A stretch of 64,000 nucleotides of DNA from a virus, in the IMG/VR virus record IMGVR_UViG_3300030102_007788, positions 106,407 to 170,406 of that record, one strand, 5' to 3'. Positions 2,667-18,388 of the stretch are shown one piece after another. The stretch's first letter is position 1, and the number at the start of each line of letters is the position of its first letter. The position numbers were made by a program, and so were the translations under genes. The notes beneath the pieces were generated by a model. That model did not search any database. It saw only the letters and a list, made by a program, of their open reading frames with translations, and had not been told where the DNA came from.

Positions 2667-3086
2667 ATGAGGAAGTACATTCCATGGGAAAAGGCAGAGA
2701 GCTTCGCTCCGGATCGCGTCAAGGTGTATCGCAACCTCACTTACAAGTGTTGGACTATATGCGATGCGAAGGATGGCAAGCTATATTGTCATGCGGATAG
2801 TGTTGACTTGCGTGATTGCAAGTTTCGGGTGCAGCCAGCAGGCCGCGCAAGAGTCTTGAAGGAGCGGCAGAAGAACGTCCACGCTTACGTGGTCGGAAAG
2901 TTCCACGATGTGAACTTCGAGCAGGCGCACTATATGCCTCGCGGCTACAAATTCGCGCAGGCTTTCTACAATCCTTATAGGGTTGAAACGTTTGTGAATT
3001 ATCACAATGGCACGCCGCTATATGAAGCGGCACGGGTTGTCTGCAAAAAGGCAGCAGACGGGGCAATGAACATTTATTACGCTTGA
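2667..3086 (+). CDS. Conserved phage hypothetical protein
   Basis: VYRNL...GRARVL.E.QKNVHAYV.G pattern, which I recognise as recurrent in phage proteins. Confidence 0.8.
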   Translation: MRKYIPWEKAESFAPDRVKVYRNLTYKCWTICDAKDGKLYCHADSVDLRDCKFRVQPAGRARVLKERQKNVHAYVVGKFHDVNFEQAHYMPRGYKFAQAFYNPYRVETFVNYHNGTPLYEAARVVCKKAADGAMNIYYA

Positions 3087-3133
3087 CAGCGTACCCTGTC
3101 TAATATATAGTTATCAGCAGTTAAGGGAACAAC

Positions 3134-3385
3134 ATGAATCAGAATCAAATGGATGATCATTGGCTGAGGCCGCGAACAAAAGCGGGAACTGAAGAGATGC
3201 GGAAAAGACTCAAAGCTATGAGGTTTATGCTGGAAGAAGCAGCGGCTCAAAGCCTAGAGGGCCGGATAGCTTCTAAGGTATTCAATGAATACTTTTCTTT
3301 CGAGTGGGAGGATGTACCATCCCTAGAAGAAAAAAAAGTAGATTTAACGAAAAAGGTGGTTGACACCGCTGCCAGTGTGCAGTAA
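3134..3385 (+). CDS. Hypothetical protein
   Basis: 83-aa ORF after TTGACA-17-TATAGT promoter and AAGGGA. Confidence 0.65.
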   Translation: MNQNQMDDHWLRPRTKAGTEEMRKRLKAMRFMLEEAAAQSLEGRIASKVFNEYFSFEWEDVPSLEEKKVDLTKKVVDTAASVQ

Positions 3386-3388
3386 GAT
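3360..3388 (+). promoter_or_regulatory. sigma70-type promoter for the non-coding region
   Basis: TTGACA-17-TAAGAT. Confidence 0.75.
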
Positions 3389-3394
3389 GAGTTT

Positions 3395-3843
3395 TCCCTT
3401 CGGGGACTTGTTAATATAACTTGTATATCTGTCTCCCTGTTAGTGGAGGTTAACTAACAAAGGTTATAGTAGTCGCACCTTCAATTGTATTATTGTTGTG
3501 TTTCATAGTAAAGGGAGTCAGACTGGGCTGACTTAAAACAACCCAGACGCTTTTTGAAAATTTGAGTTGACGGAGTTAAATACCCCTGCGAGTTTCCGTA
3601 CATTTACTCGTGCCCGTTTTACTGCTGGTGGTGCGGCAGCAACTCATTAATTTCCCTTCTCGACGGAGAAGGGCGGTGTGACGGAATTAATCTCTCCCAA
3701 GGAGATAACGTAGCACCTGCGGAAGTACCAACGGCTAAGTGGTTGAGGGAAAACGTGGGTGAGTCCGAAGTAGGTTGATAAGAAACTTTGTTTCTCGGGA
3801 ACCGAAAAGGTGTTGGTAAACAAATAATCCAACCACCATTTTT
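3395..3843 (+). ncRNA. Candidate large structured ncRNA (~450 nt)
   Basis: No credible ORF; own promoter; UUCG hairpin, H-type pseudoknot, multibranch domain, terminal hairpin and T run. Confidence 0.6.
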
Positions 3844-3854
3844 AATTTATAACA

Positions 3855-4070
3855 ATGAAAACTAAACACGCCCAAAGAAAGGCAGAGAAAAGAAAGGCAA
3901 CCCGCAGCCTTAAACTTGATGCGGTCAAGACTCGCGACATAATTGTCCGTGGCTTGAAGCAAGAAGTTAAAAGAGACTTTCGTCGCTGGAAAAAGAATCA
4001 TGCTGGCAAGGTTGAGATAATTTCTCATATTAAAAAATTGGAATCGCAGGTTAATCAAATATTCTCATAA
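3855..4070 (+). CDS. Small basic hypothetical protein
   Basis: 71-aa Lys/Arg-rich ORF. Confidence 0.6.
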   Translation: MKTKHAQRKAEKRKATRSLKLDAVKTRDIIVRGLKQEVKRDFRRWKKNHAGKVEIISHIKKLESQVNQIFS

Positions 4071-16795: not shown

Positions 16796-18388
16796 ATGGG
16801 GGAACTGCATACCATAGCAAGCAATGGTAATTTAAATGTTATAAAAAAAGCGCTTTCGAAAAATAAAGACGCATTTCTTGTCGTAGATGAAGAGTTAGGA
16901 TGGTCTCCTTTACATTACGCCGCTAGCAAAAGCAAAACTAAAATTGTAGAAGCTATTTTAGAGGCTGGCGTTGACCCTAATATTCCAAGTGTTCCTCGCA
17001 CTAAATATAAACAAAATGCTTGGAACTTAGCTATGGAGGAAGACAAAGAGAATGTTGACCCAATCGTTTTCCCACTGGATGTTGCAGATGGCCCTTCTCG
17101 CACAACAGTATTCAAAACGATTTTAATGTACGGTGGAATTTTTTATGGAGATGAATTAACTCTTCATCAAGCTGTACAGTTAGACGATATGGAAGAAGTC
17201 GAGGGATTACTACAAGACGAAACTCTTAAAATTAATGCTAGAGATAATAGAGGATGGATGGCGATTCATTACGCTGTAGATCTTGCTAATATGGAAATGT
17301 TAAAAATATTAATTGCAAATAAAGCTGCTATAAACGGTTCCACTTATGCAAAAGATGCTATAATTCATTTTAATCCTTGGGAAATTGCTAACATTAAAAA
17401 TGATGAAGTAATGCTTAAATTTTTAGAATCTAAAGGCGCTAAACGTCACCCGGGTATACTGCATGATCAAAGGGCAACGTTAAAAAATAAAACTAAATTA
17501 TACGACAGGTCAAAATCTGACTTAACTATGTCAGCAGTTAGAGAAAAATTAAAAGAAAAAGAAGCCTCGTTTAAAAAAGTTCCTAAAGCTCCTGAAGGAT
17601 TTTTGGGCAAGCTATTTGAAAATAAACACGATAAAGAAAAAAGATTAGCTTTAGAAGCCGCTGCCGAAAAAGAGCGGGAAAAAGAAGAAGAAGCCAAAAG
17701 AATAAAGCAACAAGAGCAAGAAGAAGAAAGAAGAAAACAGCAAGTTATAAAATGGTCTGGAGGCGTAGATCCTTTTAAATTAAAGGGTGAGTCATTAACT
17801 TATGACGAACAGTGTGAGGCTCATATTTATTTTATGGATATCGTAGGGTATTCGCAGAAAAGCACAAGTGAACAAAAACAAGTTTCAGATGAGTTGGTTT
17901 CAATTGTAAAAAGCACCGAGAGCTTTCAGAAGGCAGATAAAAAAGGTAAGTTAGTTATTCTGCCTACAGGTGACGGTATGGCTTTAGTTTTCTTCGATTC
18001 CGTTCATACAGCTTTTAAATGCGCTATAGATGTCGGCATCAGGACATTTAAGCATCCTCAAATAGGATTACGTCACGGTGTTTATACCGGACCCGTAGTT
18101 CCTGTTAAAGACATAAATGATAACCCTAACGTTTCTGGTACAGGTATAAATATGGCTCAACGCTGCATGGATGCTGGAGACAGTGATCATATCTTGATCT
18201 CAGATCATGTGTATCAATACGTTAGAGAATCTATACCTGCATTAAAATTTGAAGATTGGGGACCTGTAGTCGTCAAACACGGAGCTACAGTACATATGTG
18301 GACAGCTTTTGGCGTTAATTGTGGGAGACAAGAATTTCCTCATTGGAGAGGGATTAAGAGATTAGAGTATAAGGAAGATGAAGAATAA
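16796..18388 (+). CDS. Ankyrin-repeat plus class III nucleotidyl cyclase
   Basis: GWSPLHYAA and GWMAIHYAV repeats; FMDIVGYS, PTGDGMALVF, LRHGVYTGPV, GINMAQRCMD, HILIS. Confidence 0.88.
   Translation: MGELHTIASNGNLNVIKKALSKNKDAFLVVDEELGWSPLHYAASKSKTKIVEAILEAGVDPNIPSVPRTKYKQNAWNLAMEEDKENVDPIVFPLDVADGPSRTTVFKTILMYGGIFYGDELTLHQAVQLDDMEEVEGLLQDETLKINARDNRGWMAIHYAVDLANMEMLKILIANKAAINGSTYAKDAIIHFNPWEIANIKNDEVMLKFLESKGAKRHPGILHDQRATLKNKTKLYDRSKSDLTMSAVREKLKEKEASFKKVPKAPEGFLGKLFENKHDKEKRLALEAAAEKEREKEEEAKRIKQQEQEEERRKQQVIKWSGGVDPFKLKGESLTYDEQCEAHIYFMDIVGYSQKSTSEQKQVSDELVSIVKSTESFQKADKKGKLVILPTGDGMALVFFDSVHTAFKCAIDVGIRTFKHPQIGLRHGVYTGPVVPVKDINDNPNVSGTGINMAQRCMDAGDSDHILISDHVYQYVRESIPALKFEDWGPVVVKHGATVHMWTAFGVNCGRQEFPHWRGIKRLEYKEDEE

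Follow-up and report, generated by a model that had tools for sequence, protein, structure and literature searches.

The manA RNA motif was first proposed in 2010 as a riboswitch candidate residing in 5' untranslated regions (UTRs) (Weinberg et al. 2010, PMC2864571), and manA RNAs have been described to self-assemble in vitro into RNA-only particles, namely pentamer-based decamers and 60-mers (preprint 10.64898/2026.07.01.735769). Here we report the analysis of a region related to this class, located at positions 3389-3848 of a 64,000-nt stretch of phage DNA (positions 106,407 to 170,406 of the IMG/VR virus record IMGVR_UViG_3300030102_007788; the whole stretch is termed the window, and coordinates refer to it unless a relative is named). 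Comparison with relatives indicates that the region is a real structured non-coding element, predicted to be a new multi-domain variant of the manA class with two uncatalogued modules.

The GOLLD and ROOL RNAs are likewise phage-borne and rich in helices, and these classes, like manA, oligomerise in vitro (PMC12286853). The region described here differs from them in that it has no Rfam match to either class, is shorter, and consists of independent modules rather than of one fold. An initial annotation, made from the letters of the window, had proposed at this position a structured non-coding RNA of about 450 nt with its own promoter, possibly of the GOLLD/ROOL kind. As detailed below, the phage-borne, structured and non-coding nature of the region and its location behind a promoter-like site recurring in relatives are supported, while the idea of a single ornate RNA is not.

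The source record (170,406 bp, uncultured) is rated complete by CheckV. Among the large proteins tested against PHROGs, the large terminase and few others were recognised, and a blastn search of a phage record collection returned no nucleotide match. The relatives found, cited below by handles such as L002, are all of marine metagenome origin, TARA samples and many ocean samples of the JGI among them, and the phage carries one copy of each module. Positions 3389-3848 are non-coding and built of modules conserved separately. The minus-strand frames inside the region are short (37 and 61 amino acids, aa). A longer one of 107 aa (3735-4058) extends over its 3' end and is antisense to the KTKH gene that encodes the 71-aa protein described below. 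Substitutions in the stems of relatives compensate for one another, which speaks against coding and agrees with the earlier statement that no credible open reading frame (ORF) is present.

Folding of the single sequence against shuffles gave z = -1.7 for the plus strand and z = -2.4 for the minus strand. This is weak evidence, and the case for structure therefore rests on the comparison with relatives. Specifically, covariation was decisive for four elements, i.e. the pseudoknot, the 3563/3640 multibranch domain, the GACG hairpin and the terminal GTTGG/CCAAC hairpin, but not for the crossed pairings of the initial annotation, all of whose sequence elements were found in place by a sequence check. 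The features of the region are the following:

3360-3388, plus strand: sigma-70-type promoter-like site, TTGACA-17-TAAGAT, matching 10 of 12 consensus positions
3395-3406, plus strand: putative 5'-terminal hairpin UCCC-UUCG-GGGA, identical in sequence in relatives and showing no covariation
3438-3459, plus strand: putative hairpin UGUUAGU/ACUAACA with a Shine-Dalgarno (SD)-like GGAGGU in the loop, conserved in relatives
3516-3546, plus strand: module B, H-type pseudoknot; S1 3516-3521/3528-3533, S2 3523-3527/3542-3546
3549-3560, plus strand: boxA-like tract GCUUUUUGAAAA, conserved 3' of the pseudoknot
3563-3646, plus strand: module C, three-way junction; P1 3563-3569/3640-3646, P1b 3570-3573/3614-3617, P2 3588-3592/3607-3611, P3 3622-3627/3634-3639
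3654-3843, plus strand: module D, divergent manA-class RNA; P1 3654-3661/3666-3673, closing stem 3675-3678/3834-3837, P5 3812-3816/3829-3833
Within module D, plus strand: P2a 3681-3683/3709-3711, P2 3693-3697/3701-3705, P4 3773-3776/3800-3803, U run 3839-3843
3855-4070, plus strand: gene for a 71-aa basic protein, starting MKTKHAQRKAEKRK; predicted helical hairpin, no SD

Module D and the manA class

In a permissive Rfam scan, positions 3656-3843 aligned to the whole 192-position manA model (RF01745) with 45.5 bits and E = 2e-10. Related D modules scored 43-52 bits against the same model, and the relative L125, about 78% identical to the window over 3542-3693, reached 58.4 bits, while a canonical cyanophage manA has 100.6 bits (PMC9964418). 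At gathering thresholds Rfam reported tRNA-Cys only, and a tRNA gene lies 2.5 kb from the RNA region. Thus, the Rfam comparison that the initial annotation had suggested yielded neither GOLLD nor ROOL at E <= 10, and a manA alignment below the gathering score of that family.

The likeness to manA extends over the full length of the module. Specifically, module D opens with a P1 hairpin capped by a GACG loop, and a four-pair closing stem surrounds a multibranch region containing the GUGACNGAAUNAA junction, the P2 arm and UAACGU (UAAgGu in manA). The terminal hairpin, with its GGUAA..AAUAAUCC loop, adjoins the 3' closing strand. The manA junction feature GUGaCUGAAUAA is represented by GUGACGGAAUUAA at 3676-3688, and the GGUAu..AguAAUCC feature of the manA terminal hairpin is also found. 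In addition, module D resembles manA in occurring in marine phages, immediately 5' of a gene.

Unlike in manA, the P3/P4 portion appears to be rebuilt: the central part of module D was aligned by cmscan with low posterior probability, five non-canonical P4 pairs and a 33-nt insert with respect to the Rfam P3/P4, and it is because of this poor fit that the score of module D is low. The P4 helix proper to the subfamily (3773-3776/3800-3803) shows compensatory changes in all four pairs, and an alternative CGUAG/CUGCG hairpin is found as well. Module D further differs from manA in being preceded by the conserved modules B and C, and in its next gene, encoding the 71-aa basic protein, which is neither one of the classes listed in 2010 nor a gp32-like gene. 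As a reference for canonical manA we used contigs matching GTGACNGAATNAA..TAATCCNNCC (L011-L062), mostly marine viral and apparently T4-like cyanophage fragments; a covariance model of module C searched on 51 of these loci (L011-L061) detected zero C modules.

Covariation was assessed on seven helices (P1, closing stem, P2a, P2, P4, inner P4 hairpin and P5) in 50 distinct sequences aligned with MAFFT. Overall, 95.3% of the cells were paired and 18 of the 34 pairs were compensatory, values as high being obtained in 0 of 500 shuffles. The P1 hairpin (CCCTTCTC-GACG-GAGAAGGG, 3654-3673), already pointed out in the initial annotation, is 98.5% paired and covaries, with compensatory changes in five of its eight pairs. 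The closing stem GGUG 3675-3678/CACC 3834-3837 is 100% paired and changes from U-A to C-G in 10 of the 50 sequences; P2a changes from A-U to G-C in 12 of 50, and P2 is present. P5 is also 100% paired, with four of five pairs compensatory, and its loop and the CACC strand are conserved. In conclusion, these comparisons assign module D to a divergent branch of the manA class; by the threshold of Rfam itself it is not a member.

At the 3' end, a GTTGG/CCAAC hairpin followed by a T run occupies 3812-3843. The terminal hairpin and T run proposed earlier are thus present, and the hairpin covaries, but they represent the conserved 3' end of the manA fold rather than a terminator, with a gene beginning 11 nt further on. 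The extended GGTGTTGG/CCAACCACC pairing, which would have formed such a terminator, was rejected: the U-A to C-G covariation of the closing stem indicates that CACC (3834-3837) belongs to the long-range stem with the distant GGTG at 3675-3678, and not to the local pairing. The local hairpin at 3843 is weak (5+3 bp stem, 12-nt loop, -9.8 kcal/mol), and a consensus scan called no terminator at either 3551 or 3843.

These data bear on the hypothesis that module D, possibly with module C, is the aptamer of a metabolite riboswitch that switches termination or translation of the 71-aa gene, whereby a ligand would stabilise GGUG 3675-3678/CACC 3834-3837 against the pairing of GGU 3809-3811 with ACC 3835-3837 in the terminal hairpin. 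The original proposal of manA as a riboswitch candidate of 5' UTRs (PMC2864571) is in line with this hypothesis, as are the mutual exclusivity of the two CACC pairings, the U run with a start codon directly after it and the strict link between RNA and gene. However, no ligand is known 15 years after manA was proposed, the competing hairpin is the weak one described above, not called as a terminator, and the long-range stem accounts for the U-A to C-G covariation, which in the local pairing is just tolerated as a wobble. Moreover, the same modules also stand alone with a terminator and without a downstream ORF, and a small basic protein is atypical of the metabolic genes that riboswitches control. 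A metabolite riboswitch is less likely than the reading favoured below; we consider it improbable.

Modules B and C and their arrangement in relatives

A covariance model of module C (R1), built from nine copies and applied to contigs fetched with a loose pattern, gave 74 and 33 matches of 42-109 bits, and at least 105 copies of the module are present in marine contigs. The pattern TGACGGAGTTAAANNCC was too loose, matching at least 119 stretches, most of them apparently by chance; it nevertheless yielded the first distant relatives. A scan of genome contigs returned 13 matches, approximately the number estimated by chance for the pattern used there, and the model confirmed only one of them, L343, a contig of 15.8 kb belonging to a metagenome-assembled genome of Enterobacterales; no bacterial host is implied.

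The helices of module C have 98.9% of their cells paired and compensatory changes in 9 of 18 pairs, with 0 of 500 shuffles as high and 25-54% pairing in slid controls. The multibranch domain that the initial annotation had closed by TGAGTTG 3563/CAACTCA 3640 is thus well supported. Within it, P1b (ACGG 3570-3573/CCGU 3614-3617) passes from A-U through G-U to G-C, and the L207 type carries a different complementary pair at the same position. An ACGGA/UCCGU pairing inside the module was discarded, being lost in L003 and L004.

Module C is not in Rfam. Its sole match, to wcaG (RF01761), is at chance level (17.6 bits against a gathering score of 42, E = 1.2) and includes several non-canonical pairs, and membership of that family was rejected. 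The wcaG motif lies upstream of manA in cyanophage S-CREM1 (PMC9964418), and like module C it is an element placed upstream of manA. The weak match covers the 3' half of module C and P1 of module D, with GUGGUGCGG and a unit made of a hairpin plus GUGGCG..UGAA in common; however, the common 9-mer is located in the P3 loop of module C and between hairpins in wcaG, pointing to a different architecture. We also observed that the Rfam consensus sequences of wcaG and manA, compared with window positions 3599-3687, share a unit consisting of a hairpin followed by GUGG(C/U)G...CUGAA, and the two cyanophage motifs may be related. In addition, modules C and D have a common design, comprising a closing stem, an ACG(G) helix, an RRUUAA internal loop and a hairpin, and the 13-mer UGACGGAGUUAAA in module C differs at one position from UGACGGAAUUAAU in module D. 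Module C may represent a reduced manA-like core.

The pseudoknot of module B has a loop 1 of 1 nt and a loop 3 of sequence UAAAACAA. Its copies were gathered with a sequence-only profile, pairing not being demanded, which retrieved 58 distinct copies upstream of module C or D. Every one of the 58 has a fully paired S2, in the forms CUGGG/CCCAG, CGGGG/CCCCG, CAGGG/CCCUG, CGAGG/CCUCG and UAGGG/CCCUA, and S1 has six of six pairs in 54 of 58, its variants (GUCAG, GCCAG, GUCGG, CAUCUG, CAUCGG) each occurring with a matching partner. Both stems covary, as expected of the pseudoknot that had been proposed, and the permissive Rfam scan gave no match to it. In about 20 of the 53 copies that were aligned, loop 3 accommodates an additional hairpin, which is GNRA-capped and covaries. 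This long form was observed at L125:1499-1572 (minus strand) and about 20 other loci, with the hairpin GAUUAG-G-GUA-GGAA-UAC-AAUG-CUAAUC, both stems of which covary (e.g. GUA/UAC to GCG/CGC).

A G[CU]U[CU]UUU[GA]A tract was found 3' of the pseudoknot in 47 of 65 distinct relatives, specifically as GUUCUUUGA in 33, as GCUCUUUGA in 4, as GCUUUUUGA (the window type) in 8 and as GCUUUUUAA in 2. The gamma-proteobacterial boxA consensus is GYTCTTTAANA (PMC5725501). With the caveat that this consensus may not be that of the host, the window tract GCTTTTTGAAA agrees with it at 9 of 11 positions, with U at position 4, and the tracts of relatives (GTTCTTTGAAA or GCTCTTTGAAT) at about 10 of 11. In E. coli, the boxA C4T/T6C double mutation abolishes Nus recruitment (PMC5725501); since the window tract deviates at a position critical in E. 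coli, we call it boxA-like only. The arrangement recalls boxA antitermination in rrn leaders and lambda nut sites: the predicted transcript, long, structured and non-coding, has near its start an element of the hairpin type, in this case a pseudoknot, and GYUCUUUGA comes about 3-16 nt after it. It departs from these systems in having a pseudoknot instead of the boxB hairpin, G instead of A at position 8 and, in the window, U at position 4.

The T run at 3551 falls within this tract, where the initial annotation had suggested a possible split into two RNAs. If these were independent, the first would be a small RNA (3395-3556) terminating at the T run, and a second transcript, starting downstream, would comprise modules C and D and the gene. 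A module boundary does exist here, relatives carrying inserts of 170-290 nt at 3551-3562, and the pseudoknot of relatives is located 5-356 nt from module C. However, no terminator-like site is called at the boundary, no promoter-like site lies between 3551 and 3563, and the T run, 4 nt from the last pair, is interrupted in most relatives (UUUAUAAG), forming part of the conserved GYUCUUUGA tract. As the T run belongs to the boxA-like tract and no terminator is called, two separate transcripts are unlikely, and we attach very little probability to them.

The modules were found in several combinations. Module C lies 3-6 nt upstream of module D in about 85 loci; in L005-L010 module D occurs by itself, directly behind a promoter; in L004 module B is separated by a 290-nt insert from C-D. 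Most metagenome relatives contain between the boxA-like tract and module C a further conserved domain of about 170-200 nt, which the window lacks. This domain (L272, L098, L240, L241, L004:2150-2435 and many others) starts UUGAGUUUUGCGGUC, like the start of module C, and is closed by a 9-bp stem GCUYUUGAG/CUCAAGAGC that covaries to GUUCUUGAG/CUCAAGAAC. In L207 the order is B-D-C, followed by a terminator-like hairpin, and L125 has B-boxA-C-D with a strong GC hairpin and T run 50 nt later and no protein gene.

With regard to the ends of these sets, B-C-D or B-D-C was observed to finish in a strong intrinsic terminator, without the 71-aa gene, at L125:1120-1240 (minus strand) and L207:3968-4020. 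Such terminator-bounded sets, found in the branches nearest to canonical manA, are predicted to be stand-alone RNA genes.

This modularity, together with the fate of the crossed pairings, decides against a large and ornate RNA with a single fold of about 450 nt, be it of the GOLLD/ROOL kind or a new counterpart of these. Such an RNA would fit the phage origin, the promoter-like site, the nearby tRNA gene and the density of helices. However, Rfam returned no GOLLD, ROOL or other large-RNA match at E <= 10, the modules occur separately, reordered or with inserts, and the long-range crossed pairings (TACCAAC 3726/GTTGGTA 3812 and GTGGTTG 3739/CAACCAC 3830) are no better than shuffles, with 75.7% pairing and 434 of 500 shuffles as high. 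The assignment to the GOLLD/ROOL class is abandoned, and we regard a single ornate fold as scarcely credible. As to the alternative of a new class, modules B and C are indeed new to the RNA catalogue, while the 3' 190 nt belong to the described manA class. In conclusion, the arrangement in relatives indicates that the region is a predicted chain of modules, not one GOLLD/ROOL-type fold.

The transcription unit and the downstream gene

The promoter-like site at 3360-3388 predicts a transcript start near 3395. Its counterpart in L002 is TTGACG-17-TAAGAT; L220, L236 and L244 have equivalent promoters ahead of their RNA, and in L005-L010 TTGACA-17-TAATAT directly precedes module D. The proposed promoter is thus sustained both by its consensus match and by its recurrence in relatives. 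We also noticed a second, stronger promoter-like site, TTGACA-17-TATAGT (3083-3111), upstream of an 83-aa ORF (3134-3385). This ORF has no family match and ends within the promoter-like site of the RNA, the stop codon being located in the -10 hexamer; in L002 the corresponding region is unalignable, while both flanks can be aligned.

Downstream of the predicted start, UCCC-UUCG-GGGA is identical in L002, L233, L276, L288 and L274 and absent from L004 and L244. The UGUUAGU/ACUAACA hairpin is kept in L002, L004, L233, L235, L276, L288, L274 and L244, a U-A to U-G replacement being the sole change. Both hairpins are conserved in a subset of relatives but invariant, so that covariation cannot test them. 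The TATAACT/GGTTATA stem, which the initial annotation had drawn around the second hairpin, was dismissed, as its 3' arm is deleted or replaced in relatives (L002, L233 and others). The GGAGGU in the loop (3445-3452) is SD-like, and nearby phage genes seem to lack an SD.

The gene of the 71-aa protein begins 11 nt after the U run of module D. A homolog is found directly 3' of module D, within 4-12 nt of the U run, in about 57 of 67 distinct contexts, and the link persists at 37% protein identity. In reverse sampling, all the loci fetched through the protein and having upstream DNA carried module D, and a second protein-based scan of viral contigs gave the same 8 loci. Between loci whose proteins share only 37-65% identity, the RNA is still about 75-90% identical. 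No SD, strong terminator or promoter was found between module D and the AUG; the absence of an SD and of room for a promoter suggests that the gene would be read from the transcript of the RNA. Positions 3389-3848 are therefore probably the non-coding 5' part of one transcription unit, as far as can be judged from the sequence.

In five contexts (L253, L272, L249, L229 and L285) module D and the gene are separated by about 155 nt of conserved inserted sequence that starts UUUUGCCGGUGCUGGUAUGG; the insert may be a further RNA module or a promoter. In addition, the 129-kb marine contig L358 (115-3267) carries the RNA and a 71-aa-type gene between RecA-like and DnaB-like helicase genes, a replication/recombination neighbourhood.

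The homologs of the 71-aa protein are unnamed marine metagenome proteins. Searches gave no significant Pfam family, only weak PHROG matches and no sequence relative in the PDB, and Foldseek found no PDB match for the predicted fold. The AlphaFold2 model (pLDDT 89) is a two-helix hairpin with helices at 4-48 and 53-70, and conservation of the protein is highest in its Lys/Arg tract at the N-terminus, KTKHxxxKAEKxK, and in the C-terminal helix.

Canonical manA loci also precede a recurrent gene. In at least 36 of the 51 canonical-pattern loci, a gp32-like single-stranded DNA (ssDNA)-binding protein gene lies just downstream, at a distance of 45-95 nt (Pfam PF08804, E = 1.6e-23 for L012:433-1091); this gene class was not listed in the 2010 description of manA (PMC2864571). 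The T4 gene 32 operator and ribosomal-protein leaders resemble the present locus in placing a structured leader with a 5' H-type pseudoknot before a small basic protein, here a putative nucleic-acid-binding one; canonical manA RNAs, in turn, precede gp32-like genes. On the other hand, the sequence is unrelated to that of the T4 operator, binding by the 71-aa protein is putative, and the same modules also exist without a protein gene.

In phage T4, the translation of gp32 is repressed by gp32 itself, acting on a 5' leader that is nucleated by a pseudoknot. By analogy, the region could be a purely cis-acting autogenous operator, the 71-aa protein binding module D or the pseudoknot and repressing its own translation, with no function of the RNA itself. 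This hypothesis would account for the RNA-gene link seen in both sampling directions and for the location of canonical manA, mostly ahead of gp32-like genes, and the conserved Lys/Arg-rich N-terminus may resemble arginine-rich RNA-binding peptides. However, the protein gene is missing from some loci with a B-C-D or B-D-C set, about 450 nt in four modules would hardly be needed for an operator, and binding is a prediction for a protein with no known fold match. We therefore hold an operator with no further role to be unlikely, although it retains some plausibility.

Elsewhere in the window, a 530-aa ORF (16796-18388) shows, in its N-terminal third, similarity to Wolbachia phage WO proteins with ankyrin repeats (28% identity, E = 8e-6).

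Possible role of the modular manA-type RNA

The reading that we favour, with somewhat better than even confidence, is that of a modular manA-type RNA, i.e. a chain of separately folding modules that would be a product in its own right, co-transcribed with the gene of the 71-aa protein and probably coupled to that protein in function. We infer that the folded RNA is a functional product because B-C-D sets also stand alone, bounded by terminators, and because manA RNAs self-assemble in vitro. In this model the head, made up of the pseudoknot and the boxA-like tract, would probably serve to protect the 5' end, to render transcription processive across the structured part, or both, and the RNA would be coupled to the 71-aa basic protein in this clade as its translational operator, as its binding partner or by mere co-expression.

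A more specific version of the modular RNA, which we put forward tentatively, is that the orphan manA class has a protein partner: in this marine-phage clade the manA-type RNA with the C domain and the 71-aa protein would form a specific pair, as an autogenous translational operator or as a ribonucleoprotein or cage made by the phage, and that the pseudoknot/boxA-like head is a new signal ensuring complete synthesis of the RNA.

Several observations weigh against the favoured reading. Module D, at 45.5 bits, remains below the Rfam gathering score of 55.2, and its central part fits manA poorly, with low posterior probability and the 33-nt insert. In the window, the boxA-like tract has U at position 4, one of the two positions changed in the E. 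coli C4T/T6C mutant. The 71-aa protein has no recognisable RNA-binding fold in Pfam, PDB or Foldseek searches. Finally, cages have been seen in vitro only, in other manA sequences and in a preprint only (10.64898/2026.07.01.735769).

Ever since 2010 the manA class has remained an orphan among the 'riboswitch candidates'; RNA-only cages formed in vitro are now reported for it in a 2026 preprint. Our data indicate that a large marine-phage branch of the class escapes the Rfam threshold, and that this branch adds two covarying domains so far uncatalogued, a three-way junction (at least 105 copies) and an H-type pseudoknot (58 distinct copies), so that seed alignments are now available for two new RNA families. 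In addition, the RNA of this branch is tied, in both sampling directions, to one small basic protein, an association so far unreported. The links to the 71-aa and gp32-like genes provide a testable handle on the role of manA in vivo, namely whether the neighbouring protein binds, or depends on, the RNA.

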